Notes under the pieces: model-generated | Told to the model about the DNA's origin: nothing | Database searches by the model: none | Seen by the model: only the letters and a program-made list of their open reading frames with translations | Shown here: positions 23,162 through 45,667 of the stretch, piece by piece | Layout: every line of letters starts with the position of its first letter | How positions within the stretch are numbered: the first letter of the stretch is position 1 | Program-made: the position numbers and the translations under genes | DNA from: a plasmid | Sequence record: CP147646.1 | Length of the DNA stretch: 64,000 nt | Direction: 5' to 3' (one strand)

Positions 23162-23177
23162 AAAATTATAATATTTA

Positions 23178-23265
23178 CGGAGAATAAGGGATTCGAACCC
23201 TTGCGCCAGTTACCCGACCTAACGATTTAGCAAACCGTCCTCTTCAGCCTCTTGAGTAATTCTCC
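23178..23265 (-). tRNA. tRNA-Ser(GCT)
   Basis: Hand-folded cloverleaf: acceptor GGAGAAT, long variable arm, anticodon loop TTGCTAA. No encoded CCA. Confidence 0.75.
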
Positions 23266-23278
23266 AAATTAATATTAA

Positions 23279-23352
<74 letters not shown>

Positions 23353-23386
23353 AAGCAAATGCTTGGTTTTACTTTTATGTAAAGTA

Positions 23387-23457
23387 AGCGGGTGACGAGA
23401 ATCGAACTCGCGACAACAGCTTGGAAGGCTGTAGTTTTACCACTAAACTACACCCGC
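23387..23457 (-). tRNA. tRNA-Gly(TCC)
   Basis: GCGGGTGTAGTTTAGTGG...CTTCCAA... cloverleaf with anticodon TCC. Confidence 0.75.
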
Positions 23458-23476
23458 TAAAAACTTATATAATAAA

Positions 23477-23549
23477 TGGCGCGAGACGGAATCGAACCGC
23501 CGACACATGGAGCTTCAATCCATTGCTCTACCAACTGAGCTACCGAGCC
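23477..23549 (-). tRNA. tRNA-Phe(GAA)
   Basis: GGCTCGGTAGCTCAGTTGG...TTGAAGC... cloverleaf with anticodon GAA. Confidence 0.7.
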
Positions 23550-23551
23550 TA

Positions 23552-23625
<74 letters not shown>

Positions 23626-23635
23626 ATATCTTTAA

Positions 23636-23725
23636 AGGAGGATGTGGGATTCGAACCCACGCACGCTTTTACACGCCTGACGGTTTTCAAGACCGTTCCC
23701 TTCAGCCGGACTTGGGTAATCCTCC
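23636..23725 (-). tRNA. tRNA-Ser(TGA)
   Basis: GGAGGATTACCCAAG... with a long variable arm and anticodon loop CTTGAAA. Confidence 0.7.
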
Positions 23726-23740
23726 ATATAACAAAAAATA

Positions 23741-23814
23741 TGGACCTTGTAGGACTCGAACCTACGACCGCTCGGTTATGAGCCGAGTGCTCTAACCAGT
23801 TGAGCTAAAGGTCC
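23741..23814 (-). tRNA. tRNA with CAT anticodon of the Ile2 (lysidine) type, likely to be annotated as Met by default
   Basis: GGACCTTTAGCTCA...CTCATAA...GGTCGTAGGTTCGAGTCCTACAAGGTCCA closely resembles the Bacillus tRNA-Ile(CAU) body rather than elongator Met. Confidence 0.55.
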
Positions 23815-23833
23815 AAAGTCTCAATAAAATAAA

Positions 23834-23907
23834 TAGCGGCGGAGGGGATCGAACCCCCGACCTCCCGGGTATGAACCGGACGCTCTAGCCAGCTGAGCTA
23901 CACCGCC
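23834..23907 (-). tRNA. Elongator tRNA-Met(CAT)
   Basis: GGCGGTGTAGCTCAGCTGGCTAGAGCG...TTCATAC...GGGGGTTCGATCC, a classic Firmicutes elongator Met body. Confidence 0.7.
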
Positions 23908-23922
23908 ATAAAAATATATCCA

Positions 23923-23996
23923 TCGGGAAGACAGGATTCGAACCTGCGACACCTTGGTCCCAAACCAAGTACTCTACCAAGCTGAGCTACTTCCCG
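23923..23996 (-). tRNA. tRNA-Pro(TGG)
   Basis: CGGGAAGTAGCTCAGCTTGG...TTTGGGA... with anticodon TGG. Confidence 0.75.
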
Positions 23997-24003
23997 AAAA
24001 ATA

Positions 24004-24077
24004 TGCACCCTAGAGGAGTCGAACCTCTAACCGCCTGATTCGTAGTCAGGTACTCTATCCAGTTGAGCTAAGGGTGC
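24004..24077 (-). tRNA. tRNA-Arg(ACG)
   Basis: GCACCCTTAGCTCAACTGGATAGAG...CTACGAA... with anticodon ACG. Confidence 0.75.
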
Positions 24078-24088
24078 TAAATATTATA

Positions 24089-24173
24089 TGCCGAGGACCG
24101 GAATCGAACCGGTACGATGTTTACCATCGCAGGATTTTAAGTCCTGTGCGTCTGCCAGTTCCGCCACCCCGGC
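24089..24173 (-). tRNA. tRNA-Leu(TAA)
   Basis: GCCGGGGTGGCGGAACTGGCAGAC...CTTAAAA... with a long variable arm. Confidence 0.75.
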
Positions 24174-24181
24174 CTCTAACA

Positions 24182-24253
24182 AGCGAACGACGGGGTTCGA
24201 ACCCGCGACCCTCACCTTGGCAAGGTGATGTTCTACCACTGAACTACGTTCGC
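24182..24253 (-). tRNA. tRNA-Gly(GCC)
   Basis: GCGAACGTAGTTCAGTGGTAGAAC...TTGCCAA... with anticodon GCC. Confidence 0.75.
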
Positions 24254-24286
24254 ACTAAAGACACTATTTATCCTATAAAATTGTAA

Positions 24287-24359
24287 TGCCGGCTACATGA
24301 CTTGAACACGCGACCCTCTGATTACAAATCAGATGCTCTACCAACTGAGCTAAGCCGGC
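24287..24359 (-). tRNA. tRNA-Thr(TGT)
   Basis: GCCGGCTTAGCTCAGTTGGTAGAGC...TTTGTAA... with anticodon TGT. Confidence 0.75.
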
Positions 24360-24369
24360 AATCTACTAA

Positions 24370-24451
24370 TGCGGGTGAAGGGACTTGAACCCCCACGCCG
24401 TTAAGCGCCAGATCCTAAATCTGGTGCGTCTGCCAATTCCGCCATCCCCGC
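24370..24451 (-). tRNA. tRNA-Leu(TAG)
   Basis: GCGGGGATGGCGGAATTGGCAGAC...TTTAGGA... with a long variable arm. First gene of the tRNA operon. Confidence 0.75.
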
Positions 24452-41838: not shown

Positions 41839-41859
41839 GACTTGGAAAAGTCTTTTTTT
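41839..41859 (+). terminator. Plus-strand Rho-independent terminator with no annotated plus-strand gene upstream
   Basis: GACTT-GGAA-AAGTC hairpin immediately followed by T7 on the plus strand. In the minus orientation the hairpin is not followed by a U-run. Confidence 0.4.
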
Positions 41860-42040
41860 ATTTATCTAATTCCATCAACACTTCTTCCACTTTTTCCTCT
41901 GTCGCAACTTCCCACAATCTTACAGGCTCACCAGGTAACACATAATCAAATATCTTTCCGTTCTTACGCACAACCATCACTGTATCACTGCTGATATATC
42001 CTTTTTCAATCGCTTCTTTAAACTCATCTATATATAACAT
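41858..42040 (-). CDS. Small conserved hypothetical protein, 60 aa
   Basis: ATG start with a strong GGAGG RBS and a TTGTCT-17-TAAAAT promoter upstream. No recognizable domain. Confidence 0.55.
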   Translation of the reverse strand: MLYIDEFKEAIEKGYISSDTVMVVRKNGKIFDYVLPGEPVRLWEVATEEKVEEVLMELDK

Positions 42041-42322: not shown

Positions 42323-42457
42323 GGTTCTAGTAGTAGTTTGGGGCTCAAGCCCCTTGCCACTACTGATAGTATATCATATCTAAGACAAATATGAAATATT
42401 TGATTATTTTCGCAATTTGTTTAGTTGTATTTTACTTTATTAACAAGGATGATTGAA

Positions 42458-42628
42458 ATGGATAAAGAATTAACACCTCAAGAAAAAGCAAATAAAAAGT
42501 GGGCAGAAAACAATAGAGAACATAGAACCTATCTATCAAAACGATCTACTGCTCGTAGTTTTATTAACAAAAATGCTACAAAAGAAGACTTATTAGAATT
42601 AAAACAATTAATTGAAAGCAAACTCTAG
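42458..42628 (+). CDS. Small basic helical protein, 56 aa, function unknown
   Basis: ATG with an AAGGA RBS 9 nt upstream, translating MDKELTPQEKANKKWAENNREHRTYLSKRST.... Followed by a bidirectional terminator. Confidence 0.4.
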   Translation: MDKELTPQEKANKKWAENNREHRTYLSKRSTARSFINKNATKEDLLELKQLIESKL

Positions 42629-42639
42629 ACACACAAAAA

Positions 42640-42663
42640 AACCGCCCTCAATAGAGAGCGGTT
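42640..42663. terminator. Bidirectional Rho-independent terminator between the 56-aa ORF (plus) and csbD (minus)
   Basis: AACCGC, a 12-nt loop, then GCGGTT, flanked by an A-run on one side and a T-rich run on the other. Confidence 0.5.
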
Positions 42664-42869: not shown

Positions 42870-42924
42870 AATGTGCCTCCTTATTATTTTTATTCTATGG
42901 TAACATTTTGATTATTTCTAGGCA

Positions 42925-42965
42925 AATAAAAAAGCAAGAACCGCTAGTGTCAGGCGATTCTTGCT
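42925..42965 (-). terminator. Rho-independent terminator ending the HATPase/STAS two-gene operon
   Basis: AGCAAGAA / TTCTTGCT 8-bp stem with a 17-nt loop, followed on the minus strand by TTTTTTATTT. Begins 14 nt after the stop of the 99-aa gene. Confidence 0.55.
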
Positions 42966-42978
42966 AAATAATATGCAC

Positions 42979-43278
42979 CTATACTGTAATCTGCCTACTT
43001 ATTTCAAAACTAAATCGTTGTTTTATTAAATCATTTATTTGTTTTGTTGAATTTACAATTTTTAGTTGACTTTTAATATGATTAAAATCATAGTAAGACA
43101 ATAAATTGATAAAAGCAGAGTTTACAAAGGACGAACTTACTTCGCTAATTCCTGCGAACGAAACAGTCACGACTGTATCTGTATAAAAATAAGATTTCAA
43201 TTGTTCAAATAAAATCTCTCCCGCCTTATTATCGTTAGAAAAATTCTTTGCTAGTTCTTTGACAGTTAACGTTACCAT
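42979..43278 (-). CDS. Small STAS-like protein (DUF4325-type, anti-sigma-antagonist-like), second gene of a two-gene accessory module
   Basis: 99-aa ORF. The block TVVTVSFAGISEVSSSFVNSAFINLL resembles STAS/DUF4325 cores. Its ATG overlaps the TGG-TAA end of the upstream gene (ATGGTAA), indicating translational coupling. Confidence 0.55.
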   Translation of the reverse strand: MVTLTVKELAKNFSNDNKAGEILFEQLKSYFYTDTVVTVSFAGISEVSSSFVNSAFINLLSYYDFNHIKSQLKIVNSTKQINDLIKQRFSFEISRQITV

Positions 43279-44168
43279 TCGAATTCTTCCTCCTCTTCTA
43301 AATCATATAAATTGTCATTCGATACATCTATTCGAATTTCAAAAAAAGTACCAGGATATGATTCCTCAGACGAATAACTTTGAGTAATTTTATTATCTGA
43401 TACCGAGACTATACCACAATTAGATATAATTGTAAAGTTCCCGACTTTGTTAGTAGTTAAAGTATTTACAATATTAGAAAGCCCTGCCCCTCTATTTTGA
43501 GGTATAGTTTCTGCAGAAACACCCTCTTGAAGAGCGAATTCTATTAACTTGTTGTCAGGCTCATCCTTTTTAAATTTTCGCTTTATAGACTGAGGGATTC
43601 CTATTCCGAAATCAGATACTGCTATTACAATCTCCTTGTTCTTGGGATAGTATTGCCCAAAAATACATCCCTTAGATTCCTTAGAATGATCTGCAATATT
43701 ATTAAAAATTTCGTCAACCGCTACACAAATAGAACTAAACTCATTTGTTCTGCCAGTTTGCTTTTGTAACCAATTCTTAAAGTCTGTTACCTTCCATTGA
43801 GCTATTTGTTCAGTGTTAATAAATTTAATTTCAAAAGTAGTCGGGCGCAGTTCCGGCTCTTTATAAACCAATTTATCAAACACTTTAAAAAAGCCACAAT
43901 CTACTAGATACAACATAGCTTGCCTTTGACGTTTATTTAAAGAGCTTTCTTCGCATATTAACCACTTGATGTTTGCATCTTTTCTTTTTGTAGCAAAAGT
44001 TAACATATTATATAACGAAATTACTCCACTAGGTTCCGCAAACTCAATGTTTCTCATATCTACTGTAAGTGTCCTGTTATCACTTAAAGCAAGTAATCTA
44101 TTGAAATTGGTAACGATTTTCGTAATGTTATATTTGTTTAAATTCTGAGGAAGAACTAGATTATTCAT
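43272..44168 (-). CDS. GHKL / HATPase_c ATP-binding protein (RsbW/SpoIIAB-like kinase fold) with a weakly STAS-like N-terminal half and a DLEEEEEFEW C-terminus
   Basis: N-box EIFNNIADH, G1 box DFGIGIP and G2 box RGAGLSNIV are all present. The track ORF starts at a TTG; an ATG 9 nt downstream (MNNLVLP...) is the likely start. Own promoter directly after the lysin terminator. Confidence 0.6.
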   Translation of the reverse strand: MNNLVLPQNLNKYNITKIVTNFNRLLALSDNRTLTVDMRNIEFAEPSGVISLYNMLTFATKRKDANIKWLICEESSLNKRQRQAMLYLVDCGFFKVFDKLVYKEPELRPTTFEIKFINTEQIAQWKVTDFKNWLQKQTGRTNEFSSICVAVDEIFNNIADHSKESKGCIFGQYYPKNKEIVIAVSDFGIGIPQSIKRKFKKDEPDNKLIEFALQEGVSAETIPQNRGAGLSNIVNTLTTNKVGNFTIISNCGIVSVSDNKITQSYSSEESYPGTFFEIRIDVSNDNLYDLEEEEEFEW

Positions 44169-44199
44169 TGATAACAACTTTCTTTATAATAGCGAAACT

Positions 44200-44228
44200 A
44201 TTTTACTATTTTTATAAAGAGATTTCAA
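44200..44228 (-). promoter_or_regulatory. Sigma-A promoter for the HATPase/STAS module
   Basis: The minus strand reads TTGAAA, a 17-nt spacer, then TAAAAT. It sits between the lysin terminator and the module start. Confidence 0.45.
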
Positions 44229-44235
44229 TATTTCA

Positions 44236-44263
44236 ATAAAAACAGCCCCCGCAAAGCGAGGGC
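44236..44263 (-). terminator. Rho-independent terminator after the prophage endolysin gene
   Basis: GCCCTCGC-TTT-GCGGGGGC stem-loop followed on the minus strand by TGTTTTTATT. Confidence 0.6.
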
Positions 44264-44332
44264 ATTTGTCTTATCTTAAGGAGTTTTACCTCCATAATTT
44301 TTTGCTACCGACATTTATGTCGCTCTGTTGGT

Positions 44333-45667
44333 TTACATATCTGTTGCATCAATTAAGTAAGCATCTTCTACCCATTGTTCGGATTGCGGTGCATTAATAC
44401 GTGACCAACCGTTTATTTTTTCGTACACTCTCACACGAGTACCCGCTTTGATAAACTCTTTATCGGTGCTACTTGCGTTTGGTTTAGATTCTACGTAATA
44501 ATCTGTGCTTAGAGTCGCTTCGTAGTACGGCGTATTTGAGTTATCTAGCTTAGTATTAACATCTAAACGCTGATTAAAGCTAACTGCTTCTTGCGGTTTA
44601 TCTGCTTTTGGTACAGTCACTTGGCTATTGTCGTCAGCTAATAAAACGACATTTTTATCTAGTCCCCCAGCGACTCCGACGCTTGTAAATTGCCACCAGC
44701 GCACGCCGTCCATTGATGGGAAATAGTCCCAAAGTGGGTCTTTTCGTACTTCGTAGTCTGGATAACCAGCTATCCAAATGCTGTTTGGGTACTTAGCGAT
44801 AATTTGCTGATAATCAATATTATTAAGCGTAAATGGCTTATAGCTGTAGTAAACAGGCTTGTAACCAGCGCTAGCGATTTTATCCATAAATGCAATAACT
44901 GCGTTTGTGTTAGCTTGCTTGTCTGCGCTTGCGGAATCTTCATAGTCAATGACTAAGTATGATACTTTTTTGCTTGGTAAGTTAGACAAAAATAAGTCTG
45001 CTTCCCGTTGCGCTAAAGCACTATCACCGCCAAAACGTCCAAAGTGGTAATAGCCAATTGGGTCGCTTGTGTTTGCTTGTTGTTGATGCCTATCAGACAG
45101 CCAAGCGAGCGACTCAGATACTTTGATAATCGTTTTAGTAGTGCCAGCTTGCTGACAAGTAGTGGTTAAGTCTGCTTGTTGATAAGCTGATACATCAATA
45201 AAATAATCGCCTTTATTTAGTCCTATATTACCTGTAACAGTAACTGCATTTTTAAAAACTTTTGGCCTAAAGGCAGTTGGGTATGTTGCGGAGTATGGGA
45301 TTTTTACAATATTGTATGCGCCATTAGCACCGCCTTGATTTTGCCCCAAAAACCAGCCATATCCGCCTCCTGCATCGCTGTCAAAAATTGCTACATGACT
45401 GTAAGGCGTTACACCGTCAACAACCATAAAAATAGCAACATCACCAGCTTGCATAACTTCCACTTCATCAAAATAGTTTAAGATACCATTTTCGTGACGT
45501 TGCTCCCATATATCCCTTGCGTATCCTGTATTTGTACAGTTTGCGTATGGCAGTCCTAGATACTTACAGTAATCTGCGTAGCCATCCCAACATTGTGCAC
45601 CGAAAGACCCATCAATATCATAAGCGTTACCATTTGACCTGCTTTTATATTCTTGATAAGTTGCCAT
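44333..45667 (-). CDS. Phage endolysin with CHAP endopeptidase, GH25 muramidase and a C-terminal SH3b-like wall-binding domain (B30/PlyGBS type)
   Basis: 444-aa ORF with an N-terminal CHAP Cys/His (QCWDGYADY...SHVAIF), a central GH25 region (FIDVSAYQ...) and a C-terminal SH3-like domain. Confidence 0.85.
   Translation of the reverse strand: MATYQEYKSRSNGNAYDIDGSFGAQCWDGYADYCKYLGLPYANCTNTGYARDIWEQRHENGILNYFDEVEVMQAGDVAIFMVVDGVTPYSHVAIFDSDAGGGYGWFLGQNQGGANGAYNIVKIPYSATYPTAFRPKVFKNAVTVTGNIGLNKGDYFIDVSAYQQADLTTTCQQAGTTKTIIKVSESLAWLSDRHQQQANTSDPIGYYHFGRFGGDSALAQREADLFLSNLPSKKVSYLVIDYEDSASADKQANTNAVIAFMDKIASAGYKPVYYSYKPFTLNNIDYQQIIAKYPNSIWIAGYPDYEVRKDPLWDYFPSMDGVRWWQFTSVGVAGGLDKNVVLLADDNSQVTVPKADKPQEAVSFNQRLDVNTKLDNSNTPYYEATLSTDYYVESKPNASSTDKEFIKAGTRVRVYEKINGWSRINAPQSEQWVEDAYLIDATDM

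Follow-up and report, generated by a model that had tools for sequence, protein, structure and literature searches.

A two-gene module encoding a GHKL-type Ser-kinase (protein A, 298 residues) and a single-domain STAS protein of the DUF4325 family (protein B, 99 residues) is located directly after the endolysin gene of a group B Streptococcus prophage in the 64,000-nucleotide (nt) stretch of sequence record CP147646.1 analyzed here (the window). Comparison of family profiles demonstrates that A is a full-length homolog of VapK and B a homolog of VapS, parts of an anti-phage system described in 2026. The A-B module nevertheless belongs to neither the VapKSC nor the CapKS systems. A and B are strictly paired, their catalytic and acceptor residues are intact, and no effector gene is linked to them. 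In our reading, which we hold to be slightly better than an even bet (a probability of roughly 0.55), the module is a stand-alone kinase-substrate switch of the CapK/VapK-CapS/VapS type that is carried as an insulated prophage moron, would be activated by single-stranded DNA (ssDNA) or DNA damage, acts in trans, and likely protects the lysogen.

The first-pass annotation of this DNA, made from its letters without database searches, had taken A for a GHKL kinase of the anti-sigma-factor type with complete N, G1, and G2 boxes and a STAS-like N terminus, and B for a DUF4325/STAS protein. Both assignments hold, although in Pfam only B clears the cutoff: A scores narrowly under the gathering thresholds of HATPase_c_2 (25.1 versus 27.4 bits) and HATPase_c (23.3 versus 26.4 bits). 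Despite these scores, the GHKL fold is confirmed at the level of the predicted structure. The AlphaFold2 model of A (predicted local distance difference test [pLDDT] score, 88.7; predicted template modeling score, 0.87) consists of an N-terminal alpha/beta domain (residues ∼1 to 118), a GHKL domain, and a low-confidence tail, and Foldseek searches with it retrieved GyrB, Hsp90, MLH1 (MutL), and SpoIIAB at probabilities of 0.97 to 1.0, with a template modeling score on the target of 0.64 for SpoIIAB (1til_E). The N box (E153/N157), G1 box (D186-F-G188-I-G190), and G2 box (R226-G227-A-G229-L230) show no or almost no variation across sets of 34 and 110 homologs, and the same is true there of E153, N157, H161, D186, G188, G190, G227, G229, and G273 taken individually. 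The N-terminal domain is STAS-like, as the A-family profile matches the STAS domain of pendrin (E value, 8e-3) and several A homologs have Pfam STAS matches. Searches of NCBIfam with A and B returned nothing meaningful.

Protein B matches the Pfam family DUF4325 (PF14213) with 41.8 bits against a cutoff of 23 (E value, 8.9e-11), covering profile positions 2 to 62 of 64. Two adjacent serines, S49 and S50, are each conserved in at least 90% of the B family, and helix alpha-2 of the predicted structure begins at residue 49. In the alignments, S49 corresponds to VapS S48 and S50 to CapS S54, and both are predicted phosphoacceptors on this sequence basis. B ends shortly after the STAS fold and contains no winged helix-turn-helix (wHTH) or other DNA-binding domain. 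The literature on DUF4325 and on prophages of group B Streptococcus (GBS) gives no function, and that on DUF4325 describes genes of this family coupled to PIN.4 nucleases. In the Francisella phage KIRK (PMC7924643), the genes for a 293-residue hypothetical protein and, after it, a 112-residue DUF4325 protein (Fhv_0046/0047) are flanked by those for the CI repressor and the integrase; this is probably the A-B module in a temperate phage of a Gram-negative host.

The closest characterized systems, CapK/CapS and VapK/VapS/VapC, were described by Chambers et al., EMBO J 2026 (PMC13373217), together with a VapS structure (PDB entry 9z7o). CapK, which has a helix-turn-helix (HTH)-STAS-GHKL architecture and is activated by ssDNA, phosphorylates CapS (STAS-wHTH) on S54, and the downstream immune operon is thereby derepressed; such pairs regulate CBASS, Bub, Thoeris, and similar adjacent operons and are frequent just downstream of restriction-modification (R-M) operons (PMC13373217). 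VapK (STAS-GHKL) is proposed, on the basis of mutants and AlphaFold 3 models and with no direct VapK assay, to phosphorylate VapS on S48, freeing the PIN toxin VapC, which is otherwise blocked by a C-terminal inhibitory helix of VapS (native residues 94 to 116); the anti-phage protection depends on VapK F54, VapS S48, and VapC D28 (PMC13373217). The suggestion of the first-pass annotation that the system might be undescribed therefore stands in part: the pair is absent from the 2023 release of PADLOC-DB, but its kind has been known since 2026, and what is still undescribed is the effector-less, tail-bearing two-gene branch.

The VapK, CapK, and CapS sequences used for comparison were taken from the supplementary files of PMC13373217. 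The A-family profile aligned with VapK at an hhalign probability of 99.8% (E value, 3.8e-29) over 274 columns that span both domains, and BLASTP detected 29% identity between A and VapK over 175 residues (E value, 2e-13). The B-family profile matched VapS (PDB 9z7o_A) with an E value of 9.5e-12. Searches of PDB with single sequences were marginal (B touched the Escherichia VapS, 9z7o), and family profiles were needed for significance. F43 of A aligns with VapK F54, and an aromatic residue is present at this position in 101 of the 110 family sequences; the hairpin that follows Q172 of A (K176, K178) aligns with the CapK loop whose K237 and K239 are predicted to contact ssDNA (PMC13373217).

With VapKSC the module shares the architecture of the kinase (a STAS-like and a GHKL domain in ∼300 residues, with no HTH), the order of the genes (kinase, then STAS), the aromatic residue in the F54 column, and the acceptor serine of the partner. 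It differs in having no VapC or other third gene, B being followed by a terminator and a CsbD-like gene, and in the acidic, W-terminated tail of A, which VapK lacks. The stop/start overlap usual in A-B contrasts with the 16-nt gene spacing in the one Nostoc vapKSC operon inspected. In addition, B ends approximately where the STAS domain of VapS ends and therefore lacks the VapC-blocking helix. The B-family profile match to VapS reaches position 110 of the PDB chain, the native 94-116 region being unmatched; to judge from the chain length, position 110 would be native residue ∼92 if the 134-residue chain bears an 18-residue tag.

The likeness to CapKS consists in a GHKL Ser-kinase with a STAS-like domain, a STAS substrate with a serine before helix alpha-2, and the position of several A-B loci, like that of many CapK/CapS pairs, downstream of R-M genes. 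However, A starts at the STAS-like domain, leaving the first ∼70 residues of CapK unmatched and lacking the N-terminal HTH, and the C-terminal ∼90 residues of CapS, with the wHTH, have no counterpart in B. There is also no immune operon after A-B, only a terminator and then a CsbD-like gene that is found in module-less phages as well. These differences bear on the idea that A-B is a CapKS-type transcriptional regulator of one or more neighboring genes, such as the CsbD-like gene. Although CapKS homologs control the adjacent operon and the CsbD-like gene lies directly downstream of B, this idea is very improbable and already largely refuted by the domain and neighborhood comparisons: B has no domain with which to bind DNA, a strong terminator separates it from the CsbD-like gene, the latter is unchanged in GBS phages whether A-B or AbiD is found upstream of it, and the downstream genes are not conserved across lineages.

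To characterize the family, 155 related loci were gathered, 79 of them from contigs representing one genome per species and 75 from IMG/VR, with A proteins that form 114 clusters at 80% identity. A B-type DUF4325 gene encoding 92 to 112 residues follows A in essentially all of the 155 loci where the DNA continues. The translational coupling that the first-pass annotation had read from the ATGGTAA overlap of the two genes is supported by the same geometry (stop/start offset of −6) in most of these loci. Searching the whole library with the A-family profile returned 484 clusters (at 50% identity) with E values of ≤1e-30 and 4835 with E values of ≤1e-10. The best 150 clusters mostly comprise proteins of ∼280 to 315 residues (a few are shorter and apparently incomplete), and in most of them the match reaches the C terminus. 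The A-B branch spans Firmicutes, Proteobacteria, Spirochaetes, Bacteroidetes, and Saccharibacteria, and the exact B protein is present on at least 1000 contigs.

Clustering of the neighbors within four genes on either side in the 114 lineages revealed no conserved third gene. The immediate neighbors are variable and include endolysins, holins, integrases, YolD/ImpB, subunits of type I and type IIG R-M systems, and a PLD-SNF2 protein; others match DrmMI, capP, BnzB, AriA, PbeA, and MzaA. Among the viral-contig lineages from IMG/VR, 27 of 46 lie ≤3 kb from a contig end. Chromosomal islands contain the same pair as well, where it immediately follows R-M genes and adjoins other defense genes. As to the question raised in the first-pass annotation, whether the pair always adjoins lysis cassettes or defense islands, it is often found at prophage ends or beside R-M genes, with variable neighbors and no conserved family. 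A phmmer search of the 155 loci with a VapC sequence was positive only for L156, the most distant match, which has a tail-less VapK-type kinase in a true VapK-type operon. A weak match in Nostoc (P0084) likewise proved to be a true vapKSC operon, the third gene of which matches the Escherichia VapC with an E value of 1.3e-47. Matches of neighboring genes to the PADLOC models mad2, mad3, and mad8 hinted at a link to MADS, which was not adopted; A and B match no mad model. According to the MADS preprint, Mad1, Mad2, and Mad5 are accessory (homologous to R-M components or regulators), Mad3 is accessory because it is unreliably detected, and Mad8 is mandatory. The lack of a cis-encoded effector in more than 100 independent lineages argues that the output must be delivered either by A or B or by a conserved host or phage factor encoded elsewhere.

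In a metagenome-assembled genome of Ozemobacteraceae (L036:6801-8981, plus strand), the A homolog is followed by a 727-residue fusion of DUF4325, HATPase_c_3, a coiled coil, and a NucS_C-like nuclease, in which the HATPase_c_3 domain is similar to the PADLOC REase_II models; this fusion may be a kinase-gated restriction-like effector. PHROG 5816 seems to join a GHKL domain with DUF4325. Together, these two arrangements suggest that the STAS module serves repeatedly as a gate for diverse effectors, whether in cis or in trans, which would fit the modular picture of CapKS and VapKSC. Other variants of the locus include a single kinase gene followed by two DUF4325 genes (101 and 109 residues) in Paenibacillus ferrarius (L043:6867-7697, plus strand) and, in Streptococcus gordonii DD07 (L012:89-7183, plus strand), an A gene split into open reading frames (ORFs) of 164 and 91 residues by an apparent frameshift or as a pseudogene, with B intact. 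The split gene sits after a type I hsdR homolog and two unannotated genes encoding 534 and 406 residues, sizes typical of hsdM and hsdS.

The neighborhoods also bear on the proposal of the first-pass annotation that the pair hijacks a host or phage sigma factor through a classical partner switch of the RsbW/RsbV or SpoIIAB/SpoIIAA type, which we regard as quite improbable. The two kinds of pairs do share the GHKL fold with its boxes (A resembles SpoIIAB) and a STAS partner that, like RsbV and SpoIIAA, has a phosphoserine position at the N terminus of helix alpha-2. However, sequence likeness of the module to SpoIIAB/SpoIIAA-type proteins is marginal (E value, 0.18), and the nearest characterized relatives of A are VapK and CapK, which point to ssDNA or DNA-damage sensing. 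A further carries a STAS-like domain that is absent from RsbW and SpoIIAB, and the pair is mobile, phage-borne, and spread over phyla whose sets of sigma factors differ greatly. In the window, neither a sigma factor gene nor a PP2C gene adjoins it, and the 25 most frequent Pfam families of the −1/+1 neighbors in the 114 lineages include neither.

The acidic C-terminal tail of A, the presence of which correlates with the lack of a linked effector, is the most intriguing unexplained point. Its pattern is acidic-acidic-F/L-x-W-COOH, with W298 in 103, E294 in 92, E/D295 in 93, and F/L/M296 in 101 of 110 sequences. The tail has a net charge of −8, against +3 for the remainder of A, and is predicted to be flexible (pLDDT, ∼53). 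No EEEFEW tail is present in VapK, CapK, the Nostoc VapK, or the L156 kinase. In 96 of 109 loci, the GAG- and GAA-rich codons of the tail supply B with a Shine-Dalgarno (SD)-like motif, and the TGG-TAA/ATG-GTA overlap, the geometry of which is conserved across phyla, makes the last codon of A (W) and the first two of B (M-V) interdependent; conservation of the tail may therefore act in part at the nucleotide level. On the other hand, GAT and GAC, which are useless as SD sequence, make up 27% of the acidic tail codons, which was counted in favor of a protein-level motif. The two readings of the tail, both possible, are compatible with each other. The pattern resembles the C-terminal tip of the single-stranded DNA-binding protein SSB (an acidic run, a hydrophobic residue, any residue, and an aromatic residue at the carboxyl end), which binds both the DNA-binding cleft of SSB itself and partner proteins. 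By this analogy, the tail could possibly be an SSB-like protein motif.

The tail gives some substance to the view that the kinase itself is the effector: free A would inhibit a conserved protein of the host or phage by binding it through its GHKL surface or its tail, a member of the SSB-binding replication and repair set being one candidate target by analogy, and B would hold A in check until phosphorylated. We consider this alternative doubtful. The restriction of the tail to the effector-less family, its absence from the four kinases named above, which come with an effector (VapC in the Nostoc and L156 operons), its flexibility, and its SD-useless codons are all consistent with it, as is the SpoIIAB-like fold of A, since SpoIIAB acts through binding as well as phosphorylation. 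Its weaknesses are that the tail doubles as the SD-like motif and that the gene overlap alone constrains the terminal W. A related and similarly tentative proposal is an effector-less immune or stress module in which, upon ssDNA sensing, phosphorylation of B would free the kinase, and the EEEFEW-COOH tail would leave the DNA groove, engage a conserved replication/repair or transcription protein, and arrest phage or host DNA metabolism with no need for a toxin gene.

The setting of the module conforms to that of a moron: it has its own predicted promoter and terminator, lies between conserved phage genes, and is present in some and absent from other close relatives. An identical module is found in the GBS phages Javan39, LYGO9, JX01, phiGBSVK-E1_GBSInt11.1, and phiGBSVK-D_GBSInt8.1 and, at ∼97% identity, in the Streptococcus dysgalactiae phages Javan132 and Javan140. 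Beyond these 7 phages, coverage of the query is <80% in each of the 50 remaining matched records, most of which share only one flank. In the sister phages inspected (L157-L160 and L002), the equivalent of window positions 42970..44240, i.e., the slot between the lysin and CsbD-like genes, holds AbiD (Abi_2; PADLOC AbiD, 9e-45) in Javan35, Javan17, phiGBSVK-D_GBSInt3, and phiGBSVK-E2_GBSInt11.1 and a 179-residue PBECR4 nuclease-like gene (Barnase/EndoU/RelE-like) in Javan155. These replacements agree with the earlier suggestion that the lysin-distal slot carries conflict genes, and the slot looks like an exchangeable hotspot for them. The defense hotspots of P2 and P4 prophages offer a comparison. 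Like these and the streptococcal toxin-paratox regions, the slot shows alternating cargo and presence or absence among near-identical phages; the similarity is one of positional category, not of mechanism. The lysin record of phage B30 (PlyGBS; AY149214.3) extends, unannotated at positions 1488-1880, through the promoter and into A as far as codon ∼90 (window 43899..44291), so phage B30 probably carries the module as well.

Being phage-borne and homologous to parts of host immune switches, the pair might instead serve in counter-defense, with the kinase or the STAS protein acting as a decoy that disturbs host CapKS or VapKSC immunity, for example as an ssDNA sponge, a surrogate antitoxin, or a surrogate substrate. 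Potential targets exist, as vapKSC operons are found in Streptococcus, Lactococcus, and Bacillus (Dataset EV3, PMC13373217). This is unlikely, however, given the occurrence of the same pair beside defense genes in chromosomal islands and the lack in B of the VapS helix that inhibits VapC. An insulated unit with its own promoter, outside the early lytic genes, is moreover typical of lysogen-expressed morons.

Under the preferred reading of a stand-alone switch, the module's promoter would drive transcription of A and B in the lysogen, their translation would be coupled, and B would dock on the GHKL domain of A. The ssDNA that builds up during DNA damage or phage replication would bind in a groove between the STAS-like and GHKL domains of A (F43, K176/K178) and turn the kinase on, upon which A would phosphorylate B at S49/S50, at the start of helix alpha-2. 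Phosphorylation would alter binding by B, or by the freed A, and the output would act on an unlinked conserved host or phage factor or through A and B themselves. The lysogen would most likely gain protection, by superinfection exclusion or abortive infection, or else a stress response to DNA damage. The inferred elements of this scheme are the kinase activity on B, the ssDNA trigger, expression of the module in lysogens, and the benefit in defense.

Several observations weigh against this scheme. The identity between A and VapK is just ∼20 to 29%, which makes the ssDNA trigger an extrapolation from homologs; the ssDNA-stacking W68 of CapK and F43 of A are in different sequence columns; and the basic hairpin is variable, with no basic residue there in 14 of 110 sequences. 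The predicted structure of B has a STAS fold, though Foldseek by itself gave nothing significant. PADLOC-DB v2.0.0 (2023) has no model for the pair (A gave a weak GHKL-domain match to DrmA and B gave nothing), and in PHROGs both proteins fall only in families of unknown function. The role in defense or exclusion is argued from position, neighborhood, and homology, and the module would have to work with no encoded output partner nearby.

The features of the locus are listed in Table 1; the module and the endolysin gene are read on the minus strand of the window.

Table 1. Module A-B and neighboring features of the window
Feature	Position	Strand	Evidence or details
Endolysin gene, CHAP + GH25 + SH3b	44333..45667	-	Pfam domain matches
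Endolysin gene terminator (intrinsic), bounding the module upstream	44245..44263	-	8-bp stem (7 GC pairs), 3-nt loop, T-run
Sigma-70-type promoter TTGAAA-17-TAAAAT (predicted)	44200..44228	-	Consensus match alone, 10/12
Gene A, 298 residues: STAS-like + GHKL Ser-kinase, VapK/CapK homolog	43272..44168 (stop codon included)	-	
A, N-terminal STAS-like domain, residues ∼1-118	43815..44168	-	hhalign to VapK; pendrin STAS; Pfam STAS in homologs
A, GHKL (Bergerat-fold) kinase domain, residues ∼119-283; N, G1, and G2 boxes; basic hairpin K176/K178	43320..43814	-	
A, acidic C-terminal tail NDNLYDLEEEEEFEW, residues 284-298; includes the SD-like sequence and start codon of B	43275..43319	-	
ATGGTAA, overlap of A stop and B start (translational coupling)	43272..43278	-	
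Gene B, 99 residues: single-domain STAS (DUF4325), VapS homolog	42979..43278	-	
Codons of B S49 + S50, predicted phosphoacceptor serines, N terminus of helix alpha-2	43129..43134	-	
Intrinsic terminator of the module, with U-tract	42923..42965 (hairpin 42965..42933)	-	12-bp stem, 9-nt loop, -23 kcal/mol
CsbD-like gene, 66 residues	42669..42869	-	Pfam CsbD, 46 bits; own terminator 42663..42640
Paratox, 60-residue ORF	41858..42040	-	Pfam Paratox, E 1.5e-33

With terminators on both sides and a promoter of its own, A-B is a bracketed, self-contained unit, much as the first-pass annotation had described it. The strong terminator that it had placed after B is corroborated by the folding energy of the hairpin, which has a z-score of −3.9 versus shuffled sequences and is followed by UUUUUUAUUU (U6AU3); a consensus scan overlooked this terminator because its loop exceeds 8 nt. 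The ATG was chosen as the start codon of A because the upstream TTG proposed by the ORF tool crowds the ribosome-binding site and homologs begin at the ATG. The module, with a G+C content of 0.30 to 0.34, is indeed more AT-rich than the lysin and tail genes (0.36 to 0.42), but "markedly," as it was first put, is an overstatement given the host range of 0.33 to 0.40: the AT-richness is real but modest. Nor is the module the last item before the attachment site, as had been supposed, since a CsbD-like gene, two small ORFs, and then paratox lie beyond B. Paratox is the usual final gene of streptococcal prophages, and the end of this prophage is therefore placed between 41645 and 41858 rather than straight after the module.

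An ORF of 67 residues on the plus strand in this region (42425..42628) has no Pfam match; by eye it resembles cluster c19 (representative L126:7434-7616; motif KA[NW]..N.EH..YL..RS.ARSFI), which comprises small genes that adjoin A-B modules in two unrelated viral contigs. Elsewhere in the window, 14 host tRNA genes are clustered at 23177..24451 on the minus strand.

In CapKS and VapKSC, the systems described in 2026, a GHKL kinase and a STAS partner respond to a DNA-damage signal by switching on an immune operon or releasing a toxin. A-B represents a large sister branch of this family that travels, mostly on prophages, as a bare two-gene cassette with no output encoded alongside. Its strict conservation argues that the module is functional; in that case, an output distinct from the two described ones must exist, and its identification would broaden the known scope of STAS/GHKL signaling in phage-host conflict. 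If this reading is true, the module would be a candidate lysogen-protecting locus for GBS prophages, situated just downstream of the lysin gene of phage B30, a well-studied enzyme, and it may affect the phage susceptibility of clinical and bovine strains.

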